DNA of 63,951 bases, filler included, from Nitrospinota bacterium (GTDB lineage Bacteria > JADFOP01), in assembly GCA_022562795.1 (NCBI GenBank). It is 3 parts of 3 records of this genome, joined end to end, with 100 filler letters (N's around TTAATTAATTAA, not from the genome) between each part and the next. Parts side by side here need not be neighbours in the genome. Positions count along the whole stretch, not along the records: positions 1 to 31,040 come from JADFOP010000024.1; 2 more parts are not named here. One strand, written 5' to 3'. Both the position numbers and the translations under genes were made by a program. Every line of letters starts with the position of its first letter. The stretch's first letter is position 1. Below, one piece after another: positions 1 through 31,140 of this stretch. The notes below the pieces were generated by a model. It was not told where the DNA came from. It made no database searches and was given only the letters and a program-made list of their open reading frames with translations.

Positions 1-1946
1 GACTCCTCCACGCCCTCGGTAATAAGGAGGGCGCGGGCGGCCGTCGTCATGGCTTGATATGCCATTCGGGCTGCCTCGGTATAATTCCCTTGTTCGTACT
101 GGAGGTTGGCTTCAAAGAGCTCCCGCTCCGCCTCGCCCAGCTTCAGCTCCACCTCGGGGACCAATTGGCCGGCGCACTCGCCCGTTCCGACCCCCACGCT
201 GAACGGTTCCTCTTCACCCCAATCGACGTAGAAATCAGGCTGCTCGCTGATGTCAGGGACCTCCCGTAGATGGGCCAGCCCATCGCGGATGCCTTTCTTG
301 CCCACCCGCTCGGCCCACTCGTTAAAGCTCTCACCGTCGCTCCTCTCGTCCCGGTAGCGGCCCACCAGATGTTCTACCGTGGCGGGGATGTTCTTAGCCG
401 GGACCTTTAAGGTCGCCAGGCCGAACGAGTTGGCGTTTTCCGACTTCTGCCCACCCAAGAACAGATGATAGTTGGGCACCACGTTGCTGCCAACACGTTG
501 AGAGGAGCCGAAAAAGCCAATGTTGGCCACGTGGTGCTGACCGCAACTGTTCGGGCATCCGCTGACCTTGATGGAGAGGTCGCGGAACTCTTCGGGGAGG
601 GCCTCAGCTTCGGAGCCGTTGGAGGCAAGCATCTCGCGCAGCCTTAGCGCGAGGCTCTTAGAGGAAGTAATCCCCAGGATGCAGGTATCGGCGCCGGGGC
701 AGGCGGTGATGTCGAGCATCGTCTCGGCCCCCGGCTCGGACAGCCCCGCTTCGTCGAGCGCCTGGTAGAGCTCCCAGAGGTCGGATCGTCTCACCCAGCG
801 CATGAGGAAGTTCTGCTCTACGGTCGTCCGAAGGTTCTCGCCGTTGAATCTCCGAATAATGGAGGCCACGGCCCGAAGCTGTTTTGGATTTATATCGCCT
901 ATCGGCAAGGTGATGTAGACGGAGCAGAAGCCCTCTTGCTTCTGGGGGACGGCGTTGGTGGAGCACCATAGCTCGAAGGCTGGCGAGGTGCCCCCATTTC
1001 CGGGCGGCCCGTCGGGCAGAGCGGGCGACTCCTCCCCTCGCCGCACCACCAAAGGCCGTGAGAACCAGTAGGGATCGCTCCGGAGCACCTCAATCTCTTC
1101 ATGCACTTGACGGCGGAATTCCTCGATCCCAAGCTTCGCGACCAAAAACTTAAGCCGCGCCTTATTGCGGTTTTTCCGCTCGCCCCCTTTGTGAAAAACC
1201 GACAGAATCCCCGCTTGGTGCAGGATGATTTCCTCCGCAGGGAGGAACTCACTGTAGAGCTTGGCCGGATGGGGCTGCGCCCCAAGGCCACCACCGACCC
1301 ATACCTCGAAACCGTACTCGGTGCGGCCGTCGACCTCGCGGGTCCTGGCGATGTGGCCGATGTCGTGCATGTGGGCGAGCCCGCAGGGCTTGTCGGCGCA
1401 GCCGGAGAAGGCGATTTTGAACTTGCGGCCGAGCTGCTGGCATAGAGGATGTCGCAAGAAAGCATTCGTCGTAGCCCGAGCGATGGGCGTCACGTCAAAG
1501 GTTTCATCAGGGCAGACCCCGCTCAAGGAGCAGGCGGTGATGTTGCGGACCGTGTTGCCGCAGGCCTCTCTCGTTGTGAGCCCCACCGAAGCCAACCGGC
1601 GCATGATGGTTGGAACGTCCTCTAGCTGTACGAAGTGGTATTGAACGTCCTGCCTGGTGGTGACGTGGGCTAAGCCGTGGCCATGATTTTCGCTGATTTC
1701 GGCCAACATCTCGAGCTGGGTCGCGTTGAGCAGCCCTGAGGGAATCTTCACGCGCACCATATGGACGCCGGGCTGCCGCTGGCCGTAGATGCCGTGGTTC
1801 AGGCGGAAGTGCTTGAAATGCTCTTCCGATATTTTTCCCCGCTTCAAACGCTCGACCTCTACCTCGAAAATCTGAATCTCACGCTCAATCTCGGGCGCGA
1901 GCGCCTCTCTGTCTGAGGCAAAAAAAGAACGATGCTCCTCGCTCAT
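1..1946 (-). CDS. Siroheme/[4Fe-4S] nitrite/sulfite reductase with C-terminal helical (HEPN-like) extension; 3' end runs off window
   Basis: Absent from the ORF track. Manual translation from ATG 1946 (RBS AAGGAG) gives MSEEHRSFF...FRLNHGIYGQRQ...MVRVKIP...HVTTRQDVQ...REACGNTVRN...RKFKIAFSGC...CPGADTC...VSGCPNSCGQH, i.e. the CX5C and CX3C siroheme/Fe-S ligands. Confidence 0.9.
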   Translation of the reverse strand, partial: MSEEHRSFFASDREALAPEIEREIQIFEVEVERLKRGKISEEHFKHFRLNHGIYGQRQPGVHMVRVKIPSGLLNATQLEMLAEISENHGHGLAHVTTRQDVQYHFVQLEDVPTIMRRLASVGLTTREACGNTVRNITACSLSGVCPDETFDVTPIARATTNAFLRHPLCQQLGRKFKIAFSGCADKPCGLAHMHDIGHIARTREVDGRTEYGFEVWVGGGLGAQPHPAKLYSEFLPAEEIILHQAGILSVFHKGGERKNRNKARLKFLVAKLGIEEFRRQVHEEIEVLRSDPYWFSRPLVVRRGEESPALPDGPPGNGGTSPAFELWCSTNAVPQKQEGFCSVYITLPIGDINPKQLRAVASIIRRFNGENLRTTVEQNFLMRWVRRSDLWELYQALDEAGLSEPGAETMLDITACPGADTCILGITSSKSLALRLREMLASNGSEAEALPEEFRDLSIKVSGCPNSCGQHHVANIGFFGSSQRVGSNVVPNYHLFLGGQKSENANSFGLATLKVPAKNIPATVEHLVGRYRDERSDGESFNEWAERVGKKGIRDGLAHLREVPDISEQPDFYVDWGEEEPFSVGVGTGECAGQLVPEVELKLGEAERELFEANLQYEQGNYTEAARMAYQAMTTAARALLITEGVEE

Positions 1947-2291
1947 ATCCCCATCTCCTTCTTGAGAATAAATCTCCAGTCGGTCCAACAATCCGTCTGC
2001 TAGCTAGCACGGGCTCAAGATCGATGTGGAGTCCCCACGTTCTTCCTCACTATCAAGGCTGTCGATTGCACTGGTAACCTGGGCAGAGAAAGCACGTTAT
2101 TATGTGTATACCCTCTAACGAATCAGTGCAGTAGAGGCGCCGCAATGCGCAGCGATCGGACACGGAAACCCTAAGATTCTTAGCAACGCAAAACAAACCA
2201 TCGATGAGAGGCGTCATTCACCCTCCTCTATGGGCGGCCGCTCGTGTGGTGACACGAGGGCTCATGAATTTGGAAAAATGCATCGACCCTA

Positions 2292-2320
2292 TTGACATCA
2301 GATCTAAAGGCACTTATTAA
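2292..2320 (+). promoter_or_regulatory. Sigma70-like promoter for the Rrf2 gene
   Basis: TTGACA (2292-2297), 17 bp spacer, TATTAA (2315-2320), followed by tandem TATAGATAAA x2. Confidence 0.6.
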
Positions 2321-2374
2321 TATAGATAAATATAGATAAATCGATGAATAAATCAAGTATTAAATAAGGCTACC

Positions 2375-2860
2375 ATGATTTCTGCAACGTCCGAGCATGC
2401 TCTTCGTGCCATAGCCAGCATTGCTGCCGTGACCAATCCCACCTCCCCGGAAACCAGGGAGCCGATTTTGGCTCGCGACCTTTCCTCGAGAGCTGGGGTG
2501 CCCCTCAACTACCTCTCGAAAATCTTAGGAACCCTGAGCAGGGCGGGCATCCTGCAAGCGAGTCGTGGACGGGGCGGCGGATACCGTCTCGTCCGGTCCG
2601 CCGACCAGATCCCCCTCATCGACGTCGTCGAGCTGTTTGACGGGGTCACAGCCCGGCCGGACTGCTTTTTCGGAGGGGGTCGTAAGTGCTCCGACGATGA
2701 TCCCTGCACCGCGCATGATGCCTTTAAGCAGGTCCGGGAGCAGTACATAGATTTCCTTGAATCGACGACAATCGCCGATATCGCGGGCCCCACCTACGCG
2801 GACGGCGCGCCGGCCGGGGGGCTCCCTCCCTTGATCCGACAAGAAAATGCATTCTCTTGA
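2375..2860 (+). CDS. Rrf2 family transcriptional regulator (Fe-S binding, IscR/NsrR-like)
   Basis: wHTH with YLSKIL..L.RAG...S.RG.GGGY and three Cys (CFFGGGRKCSDDDPC). Confidence 0.92.
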   Translation: MISATSEHALRAIASIAAVTNPTSPETREPILARDLSSRAGVPLNYLSKILGTLSRAGILQASRGRGGGYRLVRSADQIPLIDVVELFDGVTARPDCFFGGGRKCSDDDPCTAHDAFKQVREQYIDFLESTTIADIAGPTYADGAPAGGLPPLIRQENAFS

Positions 2861-2871
2861 CTTAAGTCAAG
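2856..2871. promoter_or_regulatory. Perfect palindrome CTTGACTTAAGTCAAG, Crp/Fnr-type (TTGA-N6-TCAA) operator candidate
   Basis: Seen directly; identical copy at 21729-21744. Confidence 0.7.
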
Positions 2872-2982
2872 GCTCAAACGGGAGGGCGAACATACTTTTA
2901 TTGGAAGACCATAGTTGGAGCCATCCAGGTTGGCTCCTAATGAGGGTTCCGAGGTGAGAGCGAGAGCTCTTGGTTAGTAAAA

Positions 2983-3219
2983 ATGGGTACTTCTCGCCGC
3001 TTTGAGATTTTCCTGGACTGCCTGTGGGGCTTTCCGCTTCTCGCAGGCTTGCTCTTGATTCCGTTGAGCTTGATCACCTTAGATGCGTCGGGAGCGATTG
3101 GTGCTTCGGCCTTGTGGCTTCATCTCGTCTTGCTCGCCACGTTCGCCTACACCTTCAGCCTTCGACTCCGGCACCGATTTCCTTTGTTACAGCGAAAGAG
3201 GAAAAGTAATGAACTGTAG
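2983..3219 (+). CDS. Small hypothetical 2-TM membrane protein
   Basis: 78 aa with two hydrophobic stretches and a basic tail, first ORF of the run; weak RBS. Confidence 0.4.
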   Translation: MGTSRRFEIFLDCLWGFPLLAGLLLIPLSLITLDASGAIGASALWLHLVLLATFAYTFSLRLRHRFPLLQRKRKSNEL

Positions 3220-3286
3220 CGTAACTAGGCGTCGGGTGGCGAACAACCATGCGGATACGACTTATCACCCAGAGGGCAAAAGAAAG

Positions 3287-4414
3287 ATGAGGATCTTCCA
3301 GAGGTGCCTGCTTGAGCGACTGGTTGTGGCCGCCTGCATGGTGGCACTGCTTGGCGGGAGCGCTGCCTGGGGGGCCGAGAAGTATTCTCCTCTCGGCCCG
3401 CTTCCAGACCTGAAACAACCTGATTCGGCGAGGGTTGAGCTGGGGCGGTATCTCTTCTTCGATTCGCGGCTCTCGGGTGACACCGCCCTCAGCTGCGCCA
3501 GCTGCCACTTGCCGACCAAAGGTTGGACCGACGGCCTCCCGCTATCCAGAGCGTACCCGGGTTCCGAATACTTCCGAAACGCCAAGACCGTCCTCAACGC
3601 CGTCCACGCCGAGGTCTTATTCTGGGATGGCCGTCTCTCCTCCGACCCGTTTGAAACGCACGTCAGGGACCACCTCACCGAGAGCCACTTCATGAACATG
3701 GACGGGCGCCTCATGCAGGAGCGGATCAAGCAGATCCCAGAATACGTCAAGATGTTCAAGAACGCTTGGAATTCGGAGCCGTCTTTCGGGAAAATCCGCA
3801 ACTCAATCCGCGACTTTGAGAAGACCCTGGTCTCCCGGAACGTCCCCTTCGACAGGTTCATGAAGGGGGACAAAAGGGCGCTATCGGCCAAGGCCAAAAG
3901 AGGCTTGGCCCTATTCAAGGGCAAAGCAGGCTGCATGCGGTGCCACAACGGCGCTTATTTCTCCGACGGGAAGCCGTACAATCTTGGGGTTCCGACCAAC
4001 CCCGACATCGTAAAAAACCCCTTGCGTCACATCGGTATGCGCTCCTTCTTTCTGGGTATGGGGGTTCCAGGGTTTGAACACCTAACAGAGGACGTGGGCT
4101 ATTACACCGTCTCAAAGGTCGAGGCCGACAAGGGAAAGTTTGTGACCCCCACGCTCCGGGAATTATCCCGGACGGCGCCCTACATGCATAATGGGATGCT
4201 GAAGACCCTTGATGAGGTAATTAAGTTCTACGGCAGAGGTGGAGGAAAGAGTCCAAACAAGACGCCGTTGCTCAAACCACTTCGCCTCACCGCCAGCGAG
4301 AAGGCGGCTTTGGTGGAGTTTCTAAAGAGTCTCAGCGGGGATGAGGTTGTCGTCGCGGTTCCCGAGTTACCGAAATATGAGGTTATCAAAAACTGGCTCA
4401 AGGTAAAGAATTAA
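3287..4414 (+). CDS. idrP: Di-heme cytochrome c peroxidase/MauG family, IdrP-like (copy 1)
   Basis: Signal peptide, LG..LFFD.RLS, CASCH and CMRCH, TAPYMHNG; lies upstream of idrBA-like genes. Confidence 0.85.
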   Translation: MRIFQRCLLERLVVAACMVALLGGSAAWGAEKYSPLGPLPDLKQPDSARVELGRYLFFDSRLSGDTALSCASCHLPTKGWTDGLPLSRAYPGSEYFRNAKTVLNAVHAEVLFWDGRLSSDPFETHVRDHLTESHFMNMDGRLMQERIKQIPEYVKMFKNAWNSEPSFGKIRNSIRDFEKTLVSRNVPFDRFMKGDKRALSAKAKRGLALFKGKAGCMRCHNGAYFSDGKPYNLGVPTNPDIVKNPLRHIGMRSFFLGMGVPGFEHLTEDVGYYTVSKVEADKGKFVTPTLRELSRTAPYMHNGMLKTLDEVIKFYGRGGGKSPNKTPLLKPLRLTASEKAALVEFLKSLSGDEVVVAVPELPKYEVIKNWLKVKN

Positions 4415-4477
4415 TCGGGCTCGGATAGTAAAGGGGATGCGCAACAGCGTTTCGTCGACAGAGGAGAAGCAAAGCCC

Positions 4478-5629
4478 ATGAGAGTGCGATTTTGGATACT
4501 CATCCCAGTGCTCCTGGCTATCGTTTTGGGTCTCTTCCTGGCGCCCCGGCCTGACATCGCCACGGGGAAAGAACCCTTCCCGTCTCTCGGGCCGTTGGGG
4601 CCGGTACCCACCCCCCCGGACAATCCCACGACGCCGGCCAAAGTGGAATTGGGAAAGCTGCTCTTCTTTGATAACCGCCTCTCCGGCGATGGCAGCACTC
4701 CTTGCCTAAGCTGCCACGTCCCTCAAGTGGGCTGGGGGGACGGAGGGGACATATGTCACGGCTATCCCGGGACGAAGCACTGGCGTAACTGCCAAACGAT
4801 AGTCAATTCGGCGTATTACAATAAGCTGTTCTGGGCCGGCTCCTCCAAAAGCTTGGAGGCCCAGGCGGAGACGGCAGCAAGGGGAGCAGTGGCGGGCAAC
4901 GGGGAGCGTGATATGATGGAAGCCCGCCTCCTTCAGATCCCGGAATATGTCAAGCGGTTCAAGGAGGTCTTTGGGACACGCAGCCCCCATCTCAAGGACG
5001 CCTGGCGCGCCATCGCCGCCTTCGAGCGGACCATCGTTCAGCGAAACACCCCCTTCGACCGCTACATAAAGGGCGACAAGGGGGCGATGTCGGCAAAGGC
5101 CGTAAGGGGACTTGCCCTGTTTTCGGGTAAAGCCGGGTGCGTCCAGTGCCACAACGGCTCCCTCCTAACCGACCAGAAATACTACAATTTAGGCGTGCCA
5201 GAGAATCCCACCTTTCAGAGGGACGCCCAGCACCAGATTACCTTCCGGTTTGAGCAATACGCCAAGGGGGTTACCGAAGATATCTATCGGACGACGAAAA
5301 CCGACCTGGGTCTCTACTACCGGATGAAGCGCAAGGAGGATATGGGGAAGTTCCGGACTCCCTCCCTGCGGTATCTGGTCTACACCGCTCCTTATATGCA
5401 TAACGGGGTCTTTAGGACCCTCGAAGAAGTTATCAAGTTCTACAACAAGGGCGGTGGAGAAGATATCATCCATAGCCTATACGGGTTCAGTACAAAGACC
5501 AATAAAATCAAGCCACTCAATCTTACTGAAAACGAAAAGGGGGCGCTAAAGGCGTTCCTCGAGAGCTTGAGCGGAGAGCAAATCATCGTGAACCCTCCAA
5601 AGCTTCCCGAATACGCGGTCTATAAGTGA
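4478..5629 (+). CDS. idrP: Di-heme cytochrome c peroxidase/MauG family, IdrP-like (copy 2)
   Basis: Signal/TM segment, PPDNPTTPAKVELGK.LFFD.RLS, CLSCH and CVQCH, FRTPSLR, TAPYMHNG. Confidence 0.87.
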   Translation: MRVRFWILIPVLLAIVLGLFLAPRPDIATGKEPFPSLGPLGPVPTPPDNPTTPAKVELGKLLFFDNRLSGDGSTPCLSCHVPQVGWGDGGDICHGYPGTKHWRNCQTIVNSAYYNKLFWAGSSKSLEAQAETAARGAVAGNGERDMMEARLLQIPEYVKRFKEVFGTRSPHLKDAWRAIAAFERTIVQRNTPFDRYIKGDKGAMSAKAVRGLALFSGKAGCVQCHNGSLLTDQKYYNLGVPENPTFQRDAQHQITFRFEQYAKGVTEDIYRTTKTDLGLYYRMKRKEDMGKFRTPSLRYLVYTAPYMHNGVFRTLEEVIKFYNKGGGEDIIHSLYGFSTKTNKIKPLNLTENEKGALKAFLESLSGEQIIVNPPKLPEYAVYK

Positions 5630-5658
5630 TGAGCTGCGGGGAGAGGGGAAAAGGGACC

Positions 5659-6213
5659 ATGAATTCAGACCAAGCGCAAGAGAGACCCTGTATGACCAGG
5701 CGGCAGTTTCTGCTGGCCAGTGGGAGCGTTACCCTTACAACCGTCTTTCTGCCCTCGATTCCCGGCCTCCTAGGTCGGGCAGAGGCGGTCCCGGCGACGC
5801 TGACAAAATATCCGAAGAAAAAGGTCGGGAAGCTCAGCGCCTTGAAGACGGATGCGCCCAGGTACTTCAATTATCCCTTTAAAGATATGTATTCGCAGAA
5901 CATGCTCGTGAAATTGGGTGCCCCCGCATCGGGAGGCGTCGGGGCTGATCAAGATATCGTGGCCTTCAGCACCTTGTGCACCCACATGGGAGGACCCCTG
6001 GCCGGGAGATACAAGAGTCAAGATAAGGTCCTGGGGCCCTGCCCGCTCCACTTGACCACCTTTGACCTGACCCGGCACGGGATGGTCGTCGCCGGCCACG
6101 CCACCGAATCTCTGCCCCAGGTCGTCTTGGAGGTCCGGGGCGATACCATCTACGCCACGGGGATTCTGGGTCTGGTTTACGGCAAGCGCAATAACCTTGA
6201 TACGGGAAAGTAG
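5659..6213 (+). CDS. idrB: Rieske [2Fe-2S] small subunit of AioB/IdrB type, Tat-exported
   Basis: TRRQFLL Tat motif; CTHMG and CPLH Rieske ligands; GHATESLPQ motif. Confidence 0.88.
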   Translation: MNSDQAQERPCMTRRQFLLASGSVTLTTVFLPSIPGLLGRAEAVPATLTKYPKKKVGKLSALKTDAPRYFNYPFKDMYSQNMLVKLGAPASGGVGADQDIVAFSTLCTHMGGPLAGRYKSQDKVLGPCPLHLTTFDLTRHGMVVAGHATESLPQVVLEVRGDTIYATGILGLVYGKRNNLDTGK

Positions 6214-6254
6214 ATAGGGACCGTTATGGTCTTCCGGTGAGGAGGTAGGACATT

Positions 6255-8930
6255 ATGTCGGAACGGAAATACAAACGGCAGGACAAGGTCCCCTTGCCAC
6301 CGCCTGATGCGAAGGTGTTCACCACGGCCTGCGACTATTGCATTGTGGCGTGCGGGTATAAGGTCTACCGCTGGCCGGTGGGCAAGGAGGGGGGGCTCAA
6401 GGCCAAAGAAAACGCACTGGGCGTAGATTTTCCCGTCTCGCCGCTGAGCGGTAAGTGGGTTACCCCCAATATGCACAACGTGGTGAGGGCCGACGGACGC
6501 CTTCACAACGTTGTCGTCATTCCAGACGGCGATAGCAAGGTGGTCAATGTTGGCGGGACTCACAGCATCCGCGGGGGCTGTATCGCCCAAAAGGTCTTTA
6601 ACCCCGAAACGCCAACTAAGGATCGCCTGCAGCGTCCTCTCCTTCGGGTGGGGGGGAAGCTGACGCCGGTTTCGTGGGATACTGCCTTTGACATTATGGC
6701 CAAGGTCTCTAAGCACGTACTCGACACGCAAGGCGTCCATGCCTGGGCCATGAAGATGTTTTCCTACCATTATTATGAGAACACTTTCGCCTTGACAAAG
6801 TTGGCCTTTAGTTACATTGAAACACCGGCCTTTGCCTTTCACGACAATCCATCCGTGGCGCCCGACACCCCGGGGTTCCGGGATGTTGGATTTGACAACT
6901 TCTCAGCTTCATACGAAGACTGGTCCCTCGCCGACGTCCTCTACATCTCAGGGACCGATCCTTATGAGACCAAAACGGTCATCTTCACCCATTGGATTCT
7001 TAAAGGAATTAACACGCACAATATGAAATTGATCTACGCCCTCCCGCGCAAGACGACGGGCGTGGCTCATGCCGAGGCCACGGGGGGACTGCACCTATGG
7101 CTTATTCCCGGAACTGATACCGTGCTTCACATGGCCATAGCCCGGGTCATCTTGGAGAACGGATGGGAAGATAAGGAGTGGATTGCCCAGTTCACTAATA
7201 ATAAGTGGGGCACCGACTCCGGCTTTGGCCAGGGCACCCGGAACACACAGTGGCAGTGGCGAACCACGTGGGGCAAGCTCGAGACCAAGGGCTTTAAGGA
7301 CTACAAGGAGTGGATCCTGGCCCAGGAGGAGTCGAAGCTCGATGTCGCGGAGAAAATCACTGGGGTCCCCAGAGGCGACATCGTCCGGGCGGCGGAGATG
7401 ATGGCCAAGCCGCGGCCAGACGGGTCGCGCCCTAAGACCTCGATCGGAATCGAGAAGGGCAACTACTGGTCCAACAACTACCTAAACACCGCCTCGATCG
7501 GCTCCTTGGCATTGCTTTGCGGGGCGGGCAACAGGCCGGGCCAGATGGTCTCACGTTTCGGCGGCCACCAGAGGGGAGGCCGTAAAGGGGGCCGCTATCC
7601 CATGGAGAAGTCGCCGGAGAAGTACCCGGGCCGCCGCCGGAAATCTCTCGACCTCGACAGGTGGGTCGAGGCGGGCAATGTGCGGTTCTGCTGGTGCATT
7701 GGCACTACATGGGTTGGCTCCATGACGGCCTCTCAGGCCATGGAGGAGACTTTCAAACGCAGCACTGTTGCCAATCCGCATCAAATCAGGCGGAAAGATG
7801 CAAAGCATGCCGTTGAGGTTCTCAAGCAGCGTGTCGACAACGGCGGGATGATGCTCGTTTTCCAGGATATCTATCTACGCCAGCCGCTGGGTACGAAGTA
7901 TGCAGACCTGGTGCTGCCAGCGGCTACGTGGGGAGAAGAGGACTTCACCCGGTCCAACGGCGAGAGGAGAATTCGCCTTTATTCCAAGTTCTACGATGCG
8001 CCGGGGGAGTCGAAGCCTGATTGGTGGATTGCGGCCCAGTTTGCCAAGAAGATGGGCTCTAAGGGATTCAACTGGAAGGACTCCAACGAAGTCTTCGAGG
8101 AATCGGCCCGCTTCGGGCGCGGCTCCCGCACGGACTATTACCCCCTGGTCTGGCTCGCTAAAAAGAAGGGGATGAGGGCCCATGAGCTGCTTAGGAGCAT
8201 GGGGACTGAAGGTATCCAATGCCCTATCAGGTACGAAGACGGAAAGCTCGTTGGCACGAAGCGACTCCACGACTCCACCCTGAAACTGCCCGAGGGCGGG
8301 CCCGAGGGGCCCACAATCTGGCCCAAGTTCCTCACAGCCTTCAAATCCCAAACGGGCAAGGCCAATTTCATCAAGTCTCCCTGGAGTCTCTTTTCCGACT
8401 TTTACGAGTGGTTTAAGCCGAAGGGCGATGAGCTATGGATCACCAACGGCCGCATCAACGAGATTTGGCAGTCGGGTTACGACGATATGGAGCGGCGGCC
8501 ATACATCACCGAGCGATGGCCGGTCAACTTCATGGAAATCCACCCGGAGGACGCCGAGGCCCGGGGCATCGAAAGCGGGGATTGGGTGGCTGCCGAAAAC
8601 GATCGCGTTCCGGTCCAAGTCAGCGGGTTCTACGGCGTCCAACCCAACGACTTCACCTTTACGGAGCTGATGAAGGCAGGCCACATAAAGCTGACCAAGG
8701 CCAGGATTAACGCCGTGGCCTTAGTCACCCCAGCGGTCCGCAAGGGCGTGGCATGGATGTACTTCCTCGACCCCAAGCAGCCGGCCAACAGTTTAGTTGC
8801 GCGGGTGGTCGACCCCCTTACGAACAACTATCGCTTCAAGCTTGGGATGGGCCGGGTTCGAAAGACCGGCGAGTCACCCTACAAGCGGTCGTTGGAGGAA
8901 ATGTCCTTTGCGCGCCGGGATATTGCATAA
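6255..8930 (+). CDS. idrA: Molybdopterin oxidoreductase large subunit, AioA/IdrA family (iodate reductase-like)
   Basis: VPLPP..A...TTACDYCIVACGYKVYRWPVGKEGG, HSIRGG ([3Fe-4S] CX2CX3C...S); no Tat leader; HDNPS..PGFRD in place of the AioA HNRPAYNSE signature; flanked by two peroxidases. Confidence 0.85.
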   Translation: MSERKYKRQDKVPLPPPDAKVFTTACDYCIVACGYKVYRWPVGKEGGLKAKENALGVDFPVSPLSGKWVTPNMHNVVRADGRLHNVVVIPDGDSKVVNVGGTHSIRGGCIAQKVFNPETPTKDRLQRPLLRVGGKLTPVSWDTAFDIMAKVSKHVLDTQGVHAWAMKMFSYHYYENTFALTKLAFSYIETPAFAFHDNPSVAPDTPGFRDVGFDNFSASYEDWSLADVLYISGTDPYETKTVIFTHWILKGINTHNMKLIYALPRKTTGVAHAEATGGLHLWLIPGTDTVLHMAIARVILENGWEDKEWIAQFTNNKWGTDSGFGQGTRNTQWQWRTTWGKLETKGFKDYKEWILAQEESKLDVAEKITGVPRGDIVRAAEMMAKPRPDGSRPKTSIGIEKGNYWSNNYLNTASIGSLALLCGAGNRPGQMVSRFGGHQRGGRKGGRYPMEKSPEKYPGRRRKSLDLDRWVEAGNVRFCWCIGTTWVGSMTASQAMEETFKRSTVANPHQIRRKDAKHAVEVLKQRVDNGGMMLVFQDIYLRQPLGTKYADLVLPAATWGEEDFTRSNGERRIRLYSKFYDAPGESKPDWWIAAQFAKKMGSKGFNWKDSNEVFEESARFGRGSRTDYYPLVWLAKKKGMRAHELLRSMGTEGIQCPIRYEDGKLVGTKRLHDSTLKLPEGGPEGPTIWPKFLTAFKSQTGKANFIKSPWSLFSDFYEWFKPKGDELWITNGRINEIWQSGYDDMERRPYITERWPVNFMEIHPEDAEARGIESGDWVAAENDRVPVQVSGFYGVQPNDFTFTELMKAGHIKLTKARINAVALVTPAVRKGVAWMYFLDPKQPANSLVARVVDPLTNNYRFKLGMGRVRKTGESPYKRSLEEMSFARRDIA

Positions 8931-9056
8931 GAGCAACCTTGACCGTCGGAGGCTCACTGGATTCCTCACGGTGTGGGAGCCTTCGGATGGCAGAGATGCA
9001 GGTCAATGGACCGCTATGAGGATTATGTCGTTTATACCCACTTGGGAGGTGCGGCC

Positions 9057-12000
9057 ATGAGGAGAGGGATGACCCGACGGGAGTTTCTTCAGTGGGCTAG
9101 CGCTGCCGGCTTCGGTGCCTTCGTCGCCTCTGCCACCGACGCCTGGGGCCTTGATACGATTAAGAACCCCTTGGCGCACTATCCGAACCGCGGCTGGGAG
9201 AAGACGTATCGCGACATCTGGGACTACGACTCGCTCTTCACCTTCCTCTGCGCGCCCAACGATACGCATAACTGCATTCTAAACGCCTATGTTCGCTCTG
9301 GCGTGATGACCCGGATAGGCCCGACAATGGGCTACGGTAAAGCGACCGACCTTTACGGCAACCAGGCGAGCCACCGTTGGGACCCTCGGGTATGCCAGAA
9401 GGGGCTTGCGCTGACGCGTCGCTTCTACGGCGACCGGCGCGTGCGACACCCAATGGTCCGCGCGGGCTTCAAGCGGTGGGTGGAGGCAGGTTTCCCGCGT
9501 GGTGAGGACGGCCAGCCGCCGGCCGATTATTTCCAGCGCGGACGTGACGAGTGGGTGCGCGCCTCCCACGACGAGGCTGCGGCCATGGTCGCCTCGACCC
9601 TGAAGAACATTGCAGAGACCTACAGCGGCGAGAAGGGCGCAAGTCTGCTTCACGCCCAGGGCTATGACGAAGATATGATCGCCGCCATGAAGGGGGCCGG
9701 CACCCAGGCGCTCAAGTTCCGTGGCGGGATGCCGCTTCTTGGGATGACGCGCATCTTAGGCATGTATCGCATGGCCAACTCTTTGGCGTTGCTCGATGCC
9801 AAAATCAGGGGCGTCGGCCAGGATAAGGCTCTCGGCGGCCGTGGCTTCGATAACTACTCCTGGCACACAGACCTTCCCCCCGGACACCCAATGGTGACCG
9901 GCCAGCAGACGGTCGAGTTTGACCTAAGCGCCGTCGAGCACGCCAAGACCGCCATTGTTTGGGGCATGAACTGGATTAGCACCAAGATGCCAGACGCCCA
10001 CTGGCTGACCGAGGCGCGCCTCAAGGGGACGAAGATCGTTGTAATCGCCTGTGAGTACTCCTCCACGGCGAGCAAGGGTGACGAGGTGATAATCGTTCGT
10101 CCCGGCACGACGCCGGCGCTGGCCCTCGGACTGGCTGGCGTGCTCATACGGGAGAAACGCTACGACGCGGATTACGTCAAGAAATGGACCGACCTGCCGG
10201 TGCTGGTGCGCATGGACACTCTCAAGTACCTCCGGGCCGAGGAGGTCTTCGGCGGCGGTCCCGCACCGCTAAGGAATCAAACACGGGTCTTGCGCAAAGG
10301 TGAGAAGGCTCCTCCGCCCGGCGTTCAGCGTGAGCAGCTCATCCCCGAAGACCTCCGCAACGAGTGGGGCGACTACGTCTGGTGGGACCGCCGAACGAAA
10401 GCCCCGAAGCTCCTCACTCGAGATGAGGTTGGCAAAAAATCAGGGGTAGGCGACCCGCTCCTTGAGGGCTCCGTCAGGGTCACTCTAAAAGATGGATCGG
10501 AGGTCCGCTGCCGCCCGGTGTTCGACCTTGTGCGAGAGTATGTTGAGCATTTCGACCCCAAGACGGTGGAGGACCTCACCTGGGCCCCGGCGACGGCGGT
10601 CACATCCCTCGCCCGGCAGATTGCCAAGGAGCCCGGGACCACCCTCTTTGCGATGGGGATGGGCCCGAACCAGTTCTTTAACAACGATAATAAGGACCGC
10701 GCCGTCTTTCTCCTGGCGGCGCTGACCGGCAATGTCGGCAAGATTTCCGGAAACGTTGGCTCCTACGCGGGCAACTACCGCGTGGCCCTCTTCAACGGCC
10801 TGCCCCAGTACGTCGGCGAGAACCCCTTCGATATCGAGCTCGATCCCTCAAAGCCGGCCCGGCCCAAGAAGTTCTGGAAAGCTGAGTCAGCCCACTACTG
10901 GAACCACGAGGACAAGCCACTCCGGGTGGGCAAGCGCCTGCTGACCGGCGCCACGCACATGCCCACACCGACCAAGTCCCTCTGGTTCGCCAATGCGAAC
11001 TCCATCCTCGGCAACGTCAAGCACCACTACAACGTCGTAGTCAACGTGTTACCTAAGATGGAGATGATTTCGGTTCAGGATTGGTGGTGGACGGCCTCAT
11101 GCGAGTGGGCCGACGTCGTATTCGCGGCGGACTCCTGGGCGGAGCTCAAGCATCCCGACATGACCGCCTCGGTGACGAATCCATTCCTTACGGTCTTTCC
11201 GCGCACGCCTCTGCCGCGCGTTTTCGACACCATTGGGGACATTGAGATCTTGGCTCTCGTTGGCCGCAAGATGGCCGAGCTGACGGGGGACAATCGCTTC
11301 GACGACCACTGGCACTTCGTACGTGAGGGGCGGACCGACGTCTATCTCCAGCGGATTCTCGACCACTCCTCCAACACGAAGGGCTACCGGTTCACGGAGC
11401 TCGAGGAGAAGGCAAAGAAGGGGATACCCACCTTGATGATGAACCGGACCTACCCAAAGGCGGTGGGCTACGAACAGGCCGAGGAGTCGAGGCCCTGGTA
11501 CACCAAGACCGGACGCCTCGAGTTTTACCGCGAAGAGGACGAGTTCATCGAGGCGGGCGAGAATCTGCCGGTCCACCGCGAGCCGATCGACTCCACCTTC
11601 TACGAGCCGAACGTCATTGTCTCCGCGCCGTGTGAGGCCCTCCGGCCGGCCGGCCCGGAGGACTACGGGGTCTCTCCCGACGACCTCTCGAGCGAGACGC
11701 GCCAGGGGCGAAACGTAGTGAAATCCTGGGCCGAAATGAGCCGCTCGCACCATCCGCTGGCCAAGGACGGCTATAAGTTCATCTTCCACACGCCCAAGTT
11801 TCGCCACGGCGCCCACACCATGCCTGTCGATACCGACATGGTCGCCATGCTCTTCGGCCCCTTCGGCGACATCTATCGCCACGATAAGCGAATGCCATTT
11901 GTGGCTGAGGGTTACGTTGACATGAACCCGGACGACGCCAAGGACTTGGGGGTTGAGGACGGCGATTACGTCTGGGTTGACGCCGACCCGAGCGACAGAC

Positions 12001-12515
12001 CGTTCAGGGGTTGGCAGAAGAACAAGCGAGATTATGAGTTCTCGCGCCTGCTTTGCCGGGCCCGCTACTATCCCGGCACGCCGCGCGGGGTCACGCGCAT
12101 GTGGTTCAACATGTACGGGACTACCCCGGGCTCGAGGGAGGGGCACAAGACCCGGCCCGACGGGCTGGCGAAAAACCCGAAGACCAACTACCAGGCGATG
12201 TTCCGCTCGGGCTCACACCAGTCGGCCACTCGAGGGTGGCTGAAGCCCACTTTGATGACCGACTCGCTGGTGCGCAAGGGTGTCTTGGGCCAGGTCATCG
12301 GTAAGGGGTTCGTCCCCGACGTTCACTGTCCCACCGGCGCCCCGCGCGAGGCGTTTGTGAAAATCACCAAGGCCGAGCCGGGTGGCATCGGCGGAGAGGG
12401 CCTGTGGCGTCCCGCGAAGCTCGGCTATCGCCCTCGCTACGAAAGCAAGAAGATGAAGAAATACATCAAGGGGGCATTCATTAAGCAAGGCAAGGGCGAG
12501 GGAGGTAAAAGCTAA
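9057..12515 (+). CDS. nxrA: Periplasmic type II DMSO-reductase family alpha subunit, NXR/NarG-like (related to Nitrospira/anammox-type NxrA)
   Basis: RBS GGAGGT; Tat [15 protein letters not shown]...RVCQKG FS0 motif (C-D-C-C); [11 protein letters not shown] with Mo-ligand Asp; ~1150 aa. Direction and substrate not determinable. Confidence 0.82.
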
Positions 12516-13651
12516 TGCCGAACGTTCGTAATTGGCAGATCGGGCGGGATATGCCCTATCCCTATGAGGAGGTGCGGCCAAAGAAGCAGTTCGCAGGGGT
12601 TTTTGACATCAACAAGTGCATTGCCTGCCAGACCTGTACCCTCGCCTGCAAGACCACCTGGACGTCGGGAAAGGGCCAGGAGTACATGCTCTGGAACAAC
12701 GTGGAGACGAAACCATACGGCTCTCATCCATTAGGGTGGGACGTGCGAATCCTAAACGAGCTCGGCCCCCAAGAGTGGGACGGCGACAAGTACAAGGGGC
12801 GCACCATTTTCGAGGCGGCTCCTCCCGGAGAGCAGGTGCTCGGTTGGAAACCTGAGGATCTGGATTACGCCCACCCGAACGTCGGCGAAGACGACTCCGT
12901 CGGCAAGGTCGAGAAGGGGCTACACCTTCACGCGCCCCACATGAACTGGTTCTTCTACCTGGCCAAAACGTGCATGCATTGCACCTACCCCGCTTGCCTC
13001 GCCTCCTGCCCGCGCCAATCGATCTACAAGCGGCCCGAGGACGGCATCGTCTTGATAGACCAGGACCGTTGTCGAGGCTACCGAGAGTGCGTGAAGGGCT
13101 GCCCGTACAAGAAGGCCTACTACAACCCGATGACGGGGACCTCCGAGAAGTGCATTGGCTGCTATCCCAAGCACGATGTGAGTGGGCCAAAGGAGGCGCC
13201 GCAGTGCTTCGTCACCTGCATCGGGAAGATTCGGTGTGCCGGCTGGATCTCGCGGCCGGAGAAGGCTCGGGAAGACAACCCCATCGACTACCTCGTCCAC
13301 TTCCGCAAGGTCGCACTTCCGCTTTACCCCCAGTTCGGTCTCGAGCCGAACATGTACTACATCCCCCCGATTCACGTTCCCAAGCCCTTCTTGCGCCAGA
13401 TGTTCGGCCCGGGAGTTGACCACGCCATCGAAACCTACCGTAAGATACCCGACGACAAAGACCTGGCCGGCCTGCTGACGCTCTTCGGCTCCACTCCCCT
13501 GGTTTTCCCGCGGTGGAGGCGGAAGGGGGACACGGTCTTCGGGCTCGACGAGGACGGCAGCGAGATCGTGCGGGTGCCGATCACCGAGCCGGTCCACATC
13601 CGGGTCGCCTTTGATGCGACCCACGGTGTGGTGCGGACTAATATCCCATGA
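12515..13651 (+). CDS. nxrB: Fe-S beta subunit (NxrB/NarH-like)
   Basis: MPNV.NWQIGR.M.YPYEE N-terminus; [45 protein letters not shown]...CFVTC. Confidence 0.88.
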
Positions 13652-13664
13652 GGAGGCTGACGCC

Positions 13665-14528
13665 ATGCGACGATTAACCTGTCCTGTCGCCCTTCTGGTG
13701 CTTCTAGTTACGGTTGGGGCGCCCTTCGCCGTCGCTACACCCGAGGCTGCCGCCGAGGTAGTCGCCCTCCGGCGCGGTGTCCTTCCGGCCGATCCCGGTG
13801 ATGTCGCCTGGCGCAAGGCTCCAATGCATGTGGCGCCCCTAGTCCCGCAAAATCTGGTCGCGCCGAGGCTGATGGAGCCCTCGACCAAGGAGGTCCGGGT
13901 GCAAGCGATGACCGATGGAAACCGGGTTGCGTTCCGGCTCGCCTGGGCTGATTCGACTAATGACGACCTCCCTGGAGCAAAGCGCTTTACCGACGCCTGT
14001 GCCGTTATGCTTCCGCAGGACGCCATGGCCCCGGTCCCCTCTCCCATGATGGGCGCTGCCGGGACCCCGGTCGAAATAACCTACTGGTCGGCCTTCTGGC
14101 AGGCGGCGCTTGATGGTCGTGGCGATACGATCAAGGACATCTACCCCGGCGCGGCGGTGGACCACTATCCCTTCGAGGCCCCCTCGCTGAAGCCGGGCTC
14201 GAAAGAGCAGAGGGCGATGGCGATGAGATACGCTCCGGCCCGCGCCCTCGGCAATCGCCGGGTAGGGCCGCGTGAACGCCCGGTCGAGGACCTTGTGGCC
14301 GGGGGGCCGGGAACCATTACCCGGGCGGGTACGACCAAGTCCAACGGCCACGGTAGCCGGACCGAGGAAGGCTGGGCGGTCGTCATCTCCCGTCCCCTAA
14401 CGAAGGGCCTTCGCCCCGGGAGCCAGTCGCATGTTCAATTTGCCGTTTGGAATGGGTCTCATGGCGAGGTGGGCTCGCGCAAGATGTGGTCGGGCTGGAT
14501 TCCTCTACGCATCAAGGAGGATAGGTAG
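13665..14528 (+). CDS. Periplasmic heme-b gamma subunit (ethylbenzene dehydrogenase gamma/DOMON-like)
   Basis: RBS GAGGAGG, Sec signal, F.DA.AV..P, P.PMMG, FAVWNG...E.G.RK; position after alpha and beta. Confidence 0.8.
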   Translation: MRRLTCPVALLVLLVTVGAPFAVATPEAAAEVVALRRGVLPADPGDVAWRKAPMHVAPLVPQNLVAPRLMEPSTKEVRVQAMTDGNRVAFRLAWADSTNDDLPGAKRFTDACAVMLPQDAMAPVPSPMMGAAGTPVEITYWSAFWQAALDGRGDTIKDIYPGAAVDHYPFEAPSLKPGSKEQRAMAMRYAPARALGNRRVGPRERPVEDLVAGGPGTITRAGTTKSNGHGSRTEEGWAVVISRPLTKGLRPGSQSHVQFAVWNGSHGEVGSRKMWSGWIPLRIKEDR

Positions 14529-14530
14529 CC

Positions 14531-15127
14531 ATGGCTCGCCCTGACGCTCCGGAGGTTCAGGAATTCTTGGCTGAGGCGGCGGAGTGGCGCCTTATAGGTC
14601 TGCTGTTGGAGCGTCCTCGCTCCGGTTGGGAGGACGAGGTTAAGAGCCTTGGCAGCGAAGTGCTGGACGAGCCTCTTCGGGCGGCGGCCGAAGCTGCCCG
14701 GGAGGCCACCGAGGGAACCTACCTGGGCCTTCTGGGGCCGGGCGGCTTCGTCTCCCCCCGTGAGGTCGCCTACCGTCCCCAGGAGGACCCCGGTAAGATC
14801 ATGTCTGACCTGGCGGCTTTTTACGAAGCTTTCGCCTTCTCCCCCAAGGCCGAGGACCCGCTCGACCACATTGCGGTGGAGGCGGGCTTCGCTGGCTACC
14901 TCCGGTTGAAGGAATTATATGCCTTGGCGCGAAGAGATGAGAAGGGGGCCGCCACGACCGCCGAAGCACACCGCCACTTTCTGGAGGAGCACCTGGGAAC
15001 CTTCGTCGAGCCCTTTGCCCAAGGCCTGGAGCCTTCCGGGGTTTCCTACCTCGTTGCAGCCGCGCGTGGGCTCCTCGAACGAGTAAAGAAATCTTTGGAC
15101 GAAACGGCCGGCGTCTCCGAGCCATAA
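14531..15127 (+). CDS. TorD/DmsD-family molybdoenzyme maturation chaperone
   Basis: FYEAFAF...[13 protein letters not shown] and FLEEHL motifs. Confidence 0.85.
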
Positions 15128-15198
15128 GACGCCGCTCTGGGTCTATTATGGTCAATATGGATCATCAAGAACCTGTACCCCGCATGAAAGCGATCGAC

Positions 15199-16410
15199 AT
15201 GAATCTGCCCATTTACATGGACAATAACGCCACAACGCCTGTCGACGGGCGGGTCCTGGAGGCGATGCTTCCCTACTTTTGCGAGGAGTACGGTAACGCC
15301 GCAAGCCGAAACCATTCATTTGGTTGGCGGGCTGAGGAGGCCGTAGGGCGGGCCAGGGAGCAGGTCGCCCGGCTGATAGGAGCCAAGCCCAGGGAAATTA
15401 TCTTCACGAGCGGGGCGACCGAGAGCGACAACCTCGCTTTGAAGGGCGTGGCCGAGATGTATCGGGAGAAGGGCGATCACATCATCACCCAGGTGACCGA
15501 GCATAAAGCGGTGCTAGATTCGGCCAAGCGTCTCGAGCGGCAGGGCTTCGAGGTCACCTATCTGCCGGTCGACCGAGACGGGCTGGTAGACCCGGACGAC
15601 GTGCGGCGTGCGCTCAGGGAGACGACGATTCTCATCTCCATCATGGCTGCCAATAACGAGATTGGGGTGGTGCAGCCGTTGGAGGAGATCAGCCGTATCG
15701 CGAAGGAGCGTGGAGTGCTGTTTCACAGCGACGCGGCCCAGGCCGCAGGCAAGGTGCCGGTGGACGTGGAAGCCTGGGGGGTGGATCTTGTGAGTCTGAG
15801 CGCCCACAAGATGTATGGGCCTAAGGGGGTGGGCGCGCTCTACGTTCGGCGTCGAAACCCCCGGGTACGGCTCTCCCCGATGATGGACGGCGGCGGCCAC
15901 GAGCGTGGCATGCGTAGCGGTACCCTCGACGTTCCGGGCATAGTTGGGTTCGGAGCGGCTTGCGAGCTGGCTTACCGGGAGATGGAAGCGGAGGCCGAGC
16001 GACTTCGGTTCCTCAGGGACCGGCTGGAAGGGGGCATCCTGTCCCACGTAGAGGAGGTCTACCGTAACGGCCATGCCGAGCGGCGCCTGCCGGGCACGAG
16101 CAACCTCTCGTTCGCCTACGTGGAGGGCGAAAGCCTGATGATGGGCCTCAACGAGATTGCCGTCTCCAGCGGCAGCGCCTGTACCTCGGCCATCCTCGAG
16201 CCCTCGCACGTCCTGAGGGCGCTCGGAGTGGGCGAGGAGCTAGCCCATTCCTCCATCCGTTTCAGCCTCGGTCGGTTCAACACCGAAGAGGAGGTCGATT
16301 ACGTCATTCAGCGAGTTAAGGAAACAGTGGAGCGGCTCCGAGAGATGTCGCCCCTCTACGAGATGGTCAAAGAGGGGATCGACCTCTCGAGCGTTCAGTG
16401 GCAGACCTGA
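15199..16410 (+). CDS. iscS: Cysteine desulfurase IscS (start may be 15148 or 15184)
   Basis: [19 protein letters not shown] (PLP Lys), SSGSACTS. Confidence 0.97.
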
Positions 16411-16434
16411 GGCAGGCAAGGCGGGAACGCAATC

Positions 16435-16857
16435 ATGGCATACAGCGACAAGGTCATCGACCACTACAAAAACCCCCGCAATGTAGGCTCTTTCCCAAAG
16501 GAGGAGCTCGGCGTGGGGACGGGTATCGTCGGGGCCCCAGAGTGTGGCGATGTGATGAAGCTCCAGATCAAGGTCAACGAAGAGACCGAGGTCATCGAAG
16601 AGGCCCTGTTTAAGACCTTCGGTTGCGGCAGCGCCATCGCCTCCTCAAGCCTGGTGACCGAGTGGGTCAAGGGCAAGAGCATCGAGGAAGCTCTCAGTAT
16701 CAAGAACACGCAAATCGTCAACGAGCTGAGCCTTCCGCCGGTCAAGATTCACTGCTCTGTTCTTGCCGAAGACGCCATTAAGGCCGCCATTGCTGATTAC
16801 AAGAAGAAGATCGATCAGGCAGGCAACGAAGCTCATGGCCACCATCGAGACCAATAA
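16435..16857 (+). CDS. iscU: Fe-S scaffold IscU
   Basis: MAYSDKVIDHY.NPRNVG, GAPECGD, FGCGSA, LPPVKIHCS. Confidence 0.97.
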   Translation: MAYSDKVIDHYKNPRNVGSFPKEELGVGTGIVGAPECGDVMKLQIKVNEETEVIEEALFKTFGCGSAIASSSLVTEWVKGKSIEEALSIKNTQIVNELSLPPVKIHCSVLAEDAIKAAIADYKKKIDQAGNEAHGHHRDQ

Positions 16858-17545
16858 GCACACGGATCACCTCTGCTGGTCCTGTTACCAACCCACCGGA
16901 GGGAAACCCTTCTGCCCCGACTGCTTTAAGGTCCAGTTTCATCAGCCCAAGGCCGATTACTTCAGCATCTTGGGGCTGGATGCGAGAAGAATGAGTCTGG
17001 AGCCGGAGAGGCTGGAGGAGGCCTTCTACGCGCTGAGCCGACGTGTTCACCCGGACCACTATCAGAGCCGCAACCCAACGGAACGCCGGATTGTCGAAGA
17101 ATGCGCGGCCTTGGTCAACGTCGCTTACCGCACTTTGCGAGACCCCATCGCCCGAACGGAATACCTCCTTGAACTGGAGACAGGCTCCCCGCAGGAGCAC
17201 CGGGACCAGCCGCCGGCAGAGCTCCTTAGTCAGCTGATGGAAATCGAGGAGATAGTGGAGGCCTACCAAGGTTCGGGAGGAGCCGAACGAGGGGCCCTGA
17301 AAGACTCTCTAAAGGAGGTTCACCGCTCCCTTGAGGCCCGCCGGGAGGCAACAGAGACCGAGCTCCACGAGACCTTCGAACTCTGGGACCGTCTCGTGCT
17401 GGAAGAAGGCTCAGAAGAGCCCAAGGCCTCATTGCTCAAGCGCTTACGGGAGCTTCTTCATCATCGTAGTTATCTCACAACGACCATCCGGGACATCTCG
17501 GCTGCTCTCGCCGGTGACCCGCGCCCGGAGCCCGAGGTGGACTGA
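16835..17545 (+). CDS. hscB: Co-chaperone HscB with N-terminal tetra-Cys motif
   Basis: CWSC...CPDC, J-domain HPD, VNVAYRTLRDPIAR.EYLL. Confidence 0.92.
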   Translation: MATIETNKHTDHLCWSCYQPTGGKPFCPDCFKVQFHQPKADYFSILGLDARRMSLEPERLEEAFYALSRRVHPDHYQSRNPTERRIVEECAALVNVAYRTLRDPIARTEYLLELETGSPQEHRDQPPAELLSQLMEIEEIVEAYQGSGGAERGALKDSLKEVHRSLEARREATETELHETFELWDRLVLEEGSEEPKASLLKRLRELLHHRSYLTTTIRDISAALAGDPRPEPEVD

Positions 17546-17551
17546 CCCGCT

Positions 17552-21181: not shown

Positions 21182-21616
21182 TCAAGGGCCTGGAGGCTGG
21201 AGGGAGACAACGGGAGGAGAGGCCATCCGGACGGTGGTCAACATATTGACAATGAAGAGGCCGATGCCAGCAGTGATAGCCACGCCAAAGATTCCCGCTA
21301 AGTGCTCCCAGCTCTTTGCGCCCCTCGCACCCAGAGTCCATGTTATCGCCATACCGATCAGCCCTACGTTGGTCAGCCAGAAGTGGGGCCAGATGAGCCT
21401 GGGGTATCGCATGGGCCGGCCGCTGAACCGGGGCATTACGTGATAAGTCACCCCGAAGATCATCATGCTCACCCACCCGAGGAGGTTGATGTGCGCGTGC
21501 ACCCGAAAAATGACCGCCATCGCGGCCGGATGAAAGATCATCACCAGGCCGAGGACGGCCCCAACGGCAAGGTAGAAGAGACTCATATAGACAAACCAGA
21601 GGGTGCTTTTATCCAT
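21182..21616 (-). CDS. 4-TM membrane protein resembling the N-terminus of heme-copper oxidase subunit I
   Basis: HAHINLLGWVSMMIFGVTYHVMPRF motif; four hydrophobic helices. Confidence 0.75.
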   Translation of the reverse strand: MDKSTLWFVYMSLFYLAVGAVLGLVMIFHPAAMAVIFRVHAHINLLGWVSMMIFGVTYHVMPRFSGRPMRYPRLIWPHFWLTNVGLIGMAITWTLGARGAKSWEHLAGIFGVAITAGIGLFIVNMLTTVRMASPPVVSLQPPGP

Positions 21617-31040: not shown

Positions 31041-31140
31041 NNNNNNNNNNNNNNNNNNNNNNNNNNNNNNNNNNNNNNNNNNNNTTAATTAATTAANNNN
31101 NNNNNNNNNNNNNNNNNNNNNNNNNNNNNNNNNNNNNNNN
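31041..31140. other. Artificial contig-joining linker
   Basis: N44-TTAATTAATTAA-N44 (stops in all six frames). Confidence 0.97.

Follow-up and report, generated by a model that had tools for sequence, protein, structure and literature searches.

Iodate-reductase-type genes and a periplasmic nitrite oxidoreductase set nested by the isc genes of a Nitrospinota bacterium

The DNA examined (the window; 63,951 nucleotides, filler included) comes from the Nitrospinota bacterium genome GCA_022562795.1. It was found to carry genes of the iodate reductase (idr) type directly followed by a complete gene set for a periplasmic nitrite oxidoreductase (NXR). Our favored reading, to which we assign a probability of roughly 0.55, is that these are two self-sufficient periplasmic molybdenum (Mo) modules nested in an isc operon for iron-sulfur (Fe-S) cluster assembly, in which Idr would act as an iodate reductase at low oxygen and NXR as a nitrite oxidizer. 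The window is made up of three contigs with runs of N at the joins (31041-31140 and 59617-59716), and the first contig, positions 1-31040, holds the whole idr/nxr region.

Profile matches and translations recovered every gene that the initial annotation had described between 2375 and 15127, each on the + strand with the same boundaries. The Rrf2, idr-type, nxrABCD and isc genes form an uninterrupted co-oriented run on that strand from 2375 to 19828, which extends past the annotated genes, with no change of strand, into iscS-iscU-hscB-hscA/fdx (15148-19828). The features are as follows:

2375-2860, + strand: Rrf2-family regulator (PF02082, E 6e-27; TIGR00738, 98 bits)
3083-4414, + strand: di-heme cytochrome c peroxidase, first idrP-type gene (PF03150, E 1e-41; two CxxCH)
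4478-5629, + strand: di-heme cytochrome c peroxidase, second idrP-type gene (PF03150, E 5e-44; two CxxCH; hydrophobic N-terminus)
5626-6213, + strand: Rieske 2Fe-2S subunit exported by twin-arginine translocation (Tat), idrB-type (TIGR02694, 124 bits against a cut-off of 96; PF00355)
6255-8930, + strand: AioA-like molybdopterin subunit of the idrA-type clade, 891 residues (TIGR02693, 476 bits against a cut-off of 359)
8931-9056, + strand: idrA-nxrA spacer, 126 bp (GGGAGG ahead of the ATG at 9057)
8943-15206, + strand: block of 6.26 kb made of part of the spacer and nxrABCD, missing in the same-genus genome G001 (locus L003)
9057-12515, + strand: NxrA-type alpha subunit, type II dimethyl sulfoxide (DMSO) reductase family (TRREFL Tat motif; TIGR03479, 316 bits)
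12515-13651, + strand: NxrB-type Fe-S beta subunit (TIGR03478, 244 bits; PF13247)
13611-14528, + strand: NxrC-type heme b gamma subunit (PF09459 EB_dh; TIGR03477)
14531-15127, + strand: NarJ/NxrD-type chaperone (PF02613; TIGR03482)
15148-19828, + strand: iscS, iscU, hscB and an hscA-ferredoxin fusion (NF010611, 660 bits; TIGR01999, TIGR00714, TIGR01991, TIGR02007)

The Rieske subunit has a TRRQFL twin-arginine motif together with CxH and CxxH, and the AioA-like subunit (hereafter the A subunit) has a Cx2Cx3C motif for a 3Fe-4S cluster and no signal peptide. Three of the starts are likely to lie further in than the frames listed: that of peroxidase 1 at Met69 (3287), ahead of a signal-like segment, that of the gamma subunit at 13665, followed by a signal peptide, and that of iscS at 15184, as judged from comparison with L003.

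The initial annotation had likened the first module to the iodate reductase cluster idrABP1P2, and both its composition and its gene order agreed with idr clusters. Relatives of the A subunit were collected by scanning one genome per species and keeping the best 80 of 128, and 76 idr loci from other lineages (L004-L079) were compared. The order peroxidase-peroxidase-Rieske-A on a single strand was seen in 61 of these 76 loci, and in as many a homolog of peroxidase 1 stood in the matching position. Eleven of the remaining 15 end at a contig edge at most 350 nt from the first idr gene. The other four are L051, where the Rieske gene was not found; L054, which has the A gene at one end of the locus and the two peroxidase and Rieske genes at the opposite end; L073, with a single peroxidase; and L075, a contig of 1,927 nt. 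Identity to the other idr loci was 45-70% for the A subunit and 51-77% for peroxidase 2.

The A subunit itself was placed outside canonical AioA. With TIGR02693 it scored 476 bits, close to the 352-455 bits of idr-side representatives and far below the 854-1193 bits of canonical AioA representatives. A maximum-likelihood tree of 46 rows was built, of which 29 came from loci or the window and 17 were representatives of a 50%-identity library. In this tree the A subunit and its same-genus copy fell inside a clade of 35 rows that takes in every locus with idr synteny, and the four canonical AioA rows formed a separate clade, each with 100 in the SH-like approximate likelihood-ratio test (SH-aLRT). 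The nearest neighbors of the A subunit were proteins of Planctomycetota, Verrucomicrobiota and Methylomirabilales. Homologs from Vibrio, Moritella and Sedimenticola belong to the same family, and the one from Moritella viscosa is 55% identical to the A subunit. The substrate-pocket residues of AioA, which we take to be His, Glu, Arg and His at positions given by the A. faecalis structure, were then compared by column. The A subunit keeps three of them (His196, Arg434 and His438) and has Asp204 in the Glu column. That column holds Glu in 11/11 rows outside the 35-row clade and in 0/35 rows inside it, where Asp, Ser, Ala or Thr is found instead, with Ser in the proteobacterial idr group.

These results agree with what has been published on idr. 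The idrABP1P2 synteny is presented as a mark of likely iodate reducers, with deep members that include Planctomycetaceae and NC10, and Vibrio, Moritella and Sedimenticola are genera mentioned in the same paper (PMC8692401). Since its planctomycete and NC10 deep IdrA members are the nearest tree neighbors of the A subunit, the idr identity is supported. Compared with idrABP1P2 of Pseudomonas sp. SCT and of Denitromonas sp. IR-12, described as an "iodate reduction island" (PMC8692401), the window has the same four gene families in the same order, a Tat signal confined to the Rieske subunit, and a non-AioA A subunit that groups with deep members (Planctomycetota, Methylomirabilota) treated as IdrA in that paper. 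It differs in its host, a putative nitrite oxidizer of a candidate phylum; in its location within an isc operon, with Rrf2 on one side and iscS on the other; and in having Asp where the proteobacterial group has Ser.

The second module had been described as a complete Tat-exported alpha/beta/gamma/chaperone set of NXR type, and family matches and an alignment with a solved NxrA bore this out. The alpha subunit aligned over its full length (residues 5-1143) with NxrA of Kuenenia (PDB 7b04, chain B) at 928 bits, compared with 184 bits for perchlorate reductase, 152 for ethylbenzene dehydrogenase and 129 for NarG. NxrA is single-copy in this genome (G000). It belongs to a large family of 72-79% identity that spans many habitats and phyla, and the A-B-C-D order was kept in all 79 nxr loci fetched from metagenomes wherever the contig permits. 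Like Kuenenia stuttgartiensis NxrABC (7b04), with which its alpha subunit aligns end to end, the set has Tat export, an Fe-S beta subunit and a heme-bearing gamma subunit of EB_dh type; unlike it, the set forms a compact nxrABCD operon that includes a chaperone of its own and belongs, per PMC11009272, to the Nitrotoga/Chloroflexota-type branch.

That branch assignment comes from an account of Candidatus (Ca.) Nitrosediminicolota, putative nitrite oxidizers of oligotrophic marine sediment (Zhao, Jorgensen and Babbin 2024; PMC11009272), and our clade placement of NxrA rests on that source and not on a tree of our own. There, the lineage's nxrABCD operon is assigned to the Nitrotoga/Chloroflexota type, its NxrA is grouped with Nitrotoga and Chloroflexota nitrite oxidizers, and nitrite oxidation is argued; genomes of 1.8-2.5 Mb with an A1-type cytochrome c oxidase and neither bd nor cbb3 oxidase are described (PMC11009272). 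The present genome fits this description, being a deep lineage from sediment with an A-type CtaD. The subunit I of this cytochrome c oxidase matched at 669 bits and was accompanied by subunits III and IV, and no bd oxidase was found in the genome. Sediment metagenomes of several studies contain the stretch.

One further run, X18, the single RNA-labeled one among the runs compared, is described as RNA-Seq PolyA from seawater. It covers only 9057-14271 (nxrA to nxrC), with a likeness of 90-99%, and the lack of coverage elsewhere in the window is no finding. Directly before the nxrA ATG, the X18 contig carries a vector-like loose end, and the run is uninformative on native expression. Translated, this loose end gives a thrombin-site/NdeI linker of the kind found in expression vectors for His-tagged proteins. 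By its appearance, X18 is nxr cloned from a close relative rather than native RNA.

The setting of both modules was examined in relatives. Among the 40 nearest, there was one same-genus genome, Nitrospinae bacterium AH_259_B05_G02_I21 (G001; locus L003 on a 46-kb contig; 85% completeness), and one same-class genome (G002; 96%), and the lineage is thus deep. Rrf2 is 99% identical in G001, and G002 has Rrf2, a 221-residue open reading frame (ORF), iscS and iscU on one strand. Because Rrf2 lies two genes upstream of iscS in G002, it probably heads the isc operon as an IscR-type regulator, with idr and nxr nested between Rrf2 and iscS. The Cys/His spacing of Rrf2 presumably resembles that of the IscR ligands. 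Nesting of this kind would tie two Fe-S-rich enzymes to Fe-S assembly genes, and a link of NXR to such genes has also been remarked on (PMC11009272). The initial annotation had treated the two modules as co-regulated, and simple terminator and sigma-70 scans predicted neither a terminator nor a separate promoter in 8931-9056. The spacer did not fold unusually (z = -0.36 against shuffled sequence), and no molybdenum cofactor riboswitch or other RNA element was matched in Rfam over 1900-16500 with E up to 1.

Comparison with G001 showed that the two modules are not inherited as a unit. The L003 alignment is gapless over 1-8942 (95.3% identity) and resumes at 15207, with about 32 bases in place of 8943-15206, so that the idrA stop lies about 20 nt before the iscS start. 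NxrA was not found anywhere in G001 (85% complete) or in G002 (96% complete). The nxr block thus appears to be a clean gain or loss at the level of a cassette. Marks of a mobile-element origin were ruled against, as no direct or inverted repeats flank the block and it is no compositional outlier: by tetranucleotide make-up, the nxr block stands at the 73rd percentile and the idr block at the 83rd of random 6-kb chunks of the genome. Loss in G001, rather than gain here, would be the simpler reading because NXR is reported at this place in several species (PMC11009272). In this genus, then, idr stays fixed beside isc and the NXR cassette varies. The A subunits of the two same-genus genomes match at 100% (protein level, as rounded by tblastn), compared with 95-99% identity for the DNA and 88-97% for neighboring proteins, which points to strong purifying selection on idrA.

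The pairing was also rare elsewhere. Of 77 idr loci, 56 extend 3.5 kb or more downstream of idrA, and one of these (L009) has NXR there; of 79 nxr loci, 59 extend 3 kb or more upstream of nxr, and none of these has idr there. Taken with the same-genus genome that lacks the block, these counts do not uphold the dedicated two-enzyme hub that had been proposed. The L009 locus (G041:C3, 2680-22665) holds, in order, a NarX/NarL-like two-component system, the two peroxidase, Rieske and A genes, a gene for an Mrp-like Fe-S carrier, Rrf2, nxrABCD and a CoxB-like gene. The Mrp-like and Rrf2 genes stand between its modules, its NxrA is 54% identical to the one in the window, and another NxrA-like gene, with 43% identity, is found on the same contig at a distance of 28 kb. 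Weak NxrB-like matches in L018 and L019 (34% over 154 residues, 6 kb upstream of idr) were rejected as generic Fe-S proteins and not NXR. At E 1e-30, NxrA was not matched in three idr-bearing genomes, two metagenome-assembled ones of Nitrospinota (L015, L017) and that of Nitrospira sp. RSF151 (L073), which is not evidence of absence.

The adjacency of the two modules, for which the initial annotation knew of no described operon, is in print under another name. In Ca. Nitrosediminicolota, "thiosulfate reductase and arsenite oxidase" are reported upstream of the NXR operon, with iscS, iscU and hscAB downstream (PMC11009272). The likeness is close, with nxrABCD between the "arsenite oxidase" and isc, an A-type oxidase, no bd oxidase, a genome of about 2 Mb and marine sediment as the source. 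The accounts differ in that the enzyme is named arsenite oxidase there, with iodate, idr and peroxidase each occurring 0 times in the main text of PMC11009272. They also differ in that NXR is truly absent from the locus in a same-genus genome here, whereas missing NXR in some genomes is put down to incompleteness there. Literature searches on iodate reductase with nitrite oxidoreductase found no paper placing idr in a nitrite oxidizer. The adjacency is therefore already known; within the reach of the searches, what is new is its interpretation as an idr cluster. New points are this re-reading of the "arsenite oxidase" as idr-type, the variable NXR cassette, and the second, apparently independent idr-then-nxr arrangement in L009.

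The re-reading alters what physiology is predicted for these members of an abundant sediment phylum, as the enzyme beside their NXR is of the iodate reductase type by synteny and phylogeny. It offers a candidate electron acceptor at low oxygen for these putative nitrite oxidizers. The presence/absence result means that a genome without NXR need not have an assembly gap, and that some members of the genus may not be nitrite oxidizers.

The two modules might work as follows, although the substrates, catalytic direction, co-transcription and electron routes are what we infer from gene families and motifs. The Tat signal of the Rieske subunit would carry the signal-less Mo subunit into the periplasm. 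IdrAB would take electrons from a c-type cytochrome and reduce iodate, and the di-heme peroxidases would remove reactive by-products as in published Idr models, two of which are summarized in PMC10989891. Idr would thus be an auxiliary terminal reductase at low oxygen. Idr of aerobic marine bacteria is reported to operate when oxygen is limiting, with induction at 0.1 uM iodate (PMC11445184), which would suit an aerobe at the oxic-anoxic boundary. The soluble periplasmic NxrABC would hand nitrite-derived electrons to cytochrome c by way of its Fe-S clusters and heme b, and from there they would reach the A-type (aa3) oxidase. That the modules adjoin each other and isc may come from a demand for many Fe-S clusters and for a common transcriptional context in both, and Idr and NXR would not be obligate partners. 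Peroxidase gene clusters are reported in both oxic and anoxia-tolerant species (PMC11009272 supplement), so Idr alone does not explain the difference in niche.

Several points weigh against this reading of two independent modules with iodate and nitrite as their substrates. In this lineage both modules are predictions from gene sequence. The verified IdrA proteins of Pseudomonas sp. SCT and of Denitromonas sp. IR-12 are not among the tree rows, and no verified, named IdrA is among the 120 listed relatives of the A-subunit family (P0121); the link to verified IdrA runs through the published clade description and the named marine genera. The change from Glu to Asp in the A subunit is conservative and milder than the Ser of the proteobacterial group, and the deep "Asp" group, and hence the A subunit, could differ in substrate from proteobacterial idr. 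Co-transcription is plausible because the gaps are short, no terminator is predicted and the idrA-iscS distance in G001 is about 20 nt; idr and nxr may well be transcribed together across the 126-bp gap. The second idr-then-nxr juxtaposition in L009, with a different NXR branch, hints at more than chance adjacency. Also, none of the contig pieces listed for three sequencing runs (X1, X2 and X4) bridges 9054-9116.

The alternative that survives best is direct coupling of the two enzymes. Electrons from nitrite would pass from NXR via periplasmic cytochrome c to IdrAB, giving anaerobic nitrite oxidation with iodate, and the gene adjacency, like the L009 arrangement, would reflect selection for the pairing. 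We consider this unlikely. In its favor, both enzymes would be periplasmic, and their genes share a strand, are separated by 126 bp and have no predicted terminator between them. In L009 there is a second juxtaposition, with a distant NxrA. The standard redox potential of the iodate/iodide couple is above that of nitrate/nitrite, and thermodynamics would permit electrons to go from nitrite to iodate. We know of no organism or gene set to which iodate-driven nitrite oxidation has been tied. Iodate has been proposed as an oxidant of nitrite in oxygen-deficient waters (cited in PMC8114937 and PMC11373643), and the abundance of one Ca. Nitrosediminicola species in anoxic layers was left unexplained in PMC11009272. 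However, little iodate reduction was seen in shipboard incubations of anoxic nitrite-bearing water (PMC8114937). By topology, the protons released in the periplasm by nitrite oxidation would cancel those taken up by iodate reduction, leaving no gradient from the reaction by itself; because both active sites would be periplasmic, a cytochrome-c shortcut alone would conserve no energy. Also, G001 keeps idr without NXR, and NXR is lacking from 55/56 other idr loci, as is idr from 59/59 nxr loci. Should nitrite-dependent iodate reduction be true, the interest of the locus would rise sharply, and the window supplies a concrete organism and gene set with which iodate-driven nitrite oxidation without oxygen could be tested.

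Another possible explanation is that the first module is an arsenite oxidase, a second enzyme of electron input beside NXR that would feed cytochrome c and the aa3 oxidase. Such a grouping of two input enzymes would be physiologically sensible, and the name is the one given by automatic annotation and by PMC11009272. Like AioAB (PDB 1g8k, 4aay), the module pairs a 3Fe-4S and Mo subunit of the same fold family with a Tat-Rieske partner, and it passes both TIGR02693 (476 against a cut-off of 359) and TIGR02694. In the pocket, His, Arg and His are kept, with a conservative Glu-to-Asp change. We nevertheless find this improbable. The best score of the A subunit with AioA in PDB was 312 bits, canonical AioA reaches 854-1193 bits with TIGR02693 and forms a separate clade (SH-aLRT 100), and the pocket Glu is replaced here and is present in 0/35 rows of the 35-row clade. 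In addition, two di-heme peroxidase genes lie directly upstream, and cytochrome c peroxidases are reported to be missing from aioA neighborhoods (PMC8692401).

Both modules could instead be terminal reductases, with NXR operating backward to reduce nitrate in the periplasm and Idr acting on iodate, in what would be an island for anaerobic oxyanion respiration. NXR is reversible (PMC11373643), the NxrA family of 72-79% identity occurs in phyla not known as nitrite oxidizers (including Kryptonia, Pirellulales and Thermoanaerobaculia), and the idr genes of L009 come after those of a NarX/NarL-like two-component system. Against this, validated nitrite oxidizers fall within the NxrA clade, heterotrophic and lithotrophic denitrification are argued against in the lineage, and it is described as lacking transporters for organic substrates, having few electron donors and living in oligotrophic oxic sediment (PMC11009272). 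We regard a pair of reductases as a poor prospect, and the reading of NXR as a nitrite oxidizer beside an auxiliary Idr was kept.

The soundness of the junction was checked by comparing contigs of sequencing runs from different studies over 2000-17000. Pieces of contigs from runs of two studies extend from idrA through the block-specific spacer (6852-9053 in X2 and 3078-9053 in X4) and stop three bases short of the nxrA start, and a single X2 piece covers 9117-15220, from nxrA into iscS. Polymorphic sites at 9104 and 9138 coincide with the contig breaks. The idr and nxr parts have similar depths in X1, X2 and X4, which are DNA runs, and no joint bypassing the nxr block was among those listed for them. 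Because both flanks are collinear with G001, the depths are similar and contigs reach 9053, a misjoin at the spacer, which the initial annotation had raised as a concern, is very unlikely, and the contigs and depths of public runs upheld the junction. That the adjacency is an artefact of assembly or binning is hardly credible: the gap between listed pieces at 9054-9116 in three DNA runs and the absence of the block from a same-genus genome would fit it, but a chance misjoin would require two exact breakpoints in flanks collinear with a relative, contigs of two studies join idrA to the block-specific spacer up to 9053 while another spans 9117-15220, the breaks fall on polymorphic sites, the block resembles the rest of the genome in composition, and a like neighborhood is reported in several genomes from different places (PMC11009272).

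A few features around the run were also seen. Upstream of it, a NirA-like nitrite/sulfite reductase ORF lies on the - strand at 3-1991 and runs off the edge of the stretch. A HEPN-domain match at residues 618-662 of this ORF marks either a fusion or two genes read through. At the far end of the run, HscA (17552-19828) carries a 2Fe-2S ferredoxin of ISC type as a C-terminal fusion (Fer2 at residues 625-701; TIGR02007, 96 bits). Beyond it, on the - strand at 21182-21616, a 144-residue ORF matched PF00115 (heme-copper oxidase subunit I) at 41 bits over the N-terminal third of that family and had no NCBIfam match, and a similar fragment is present in G001 (C55:29445-29735).

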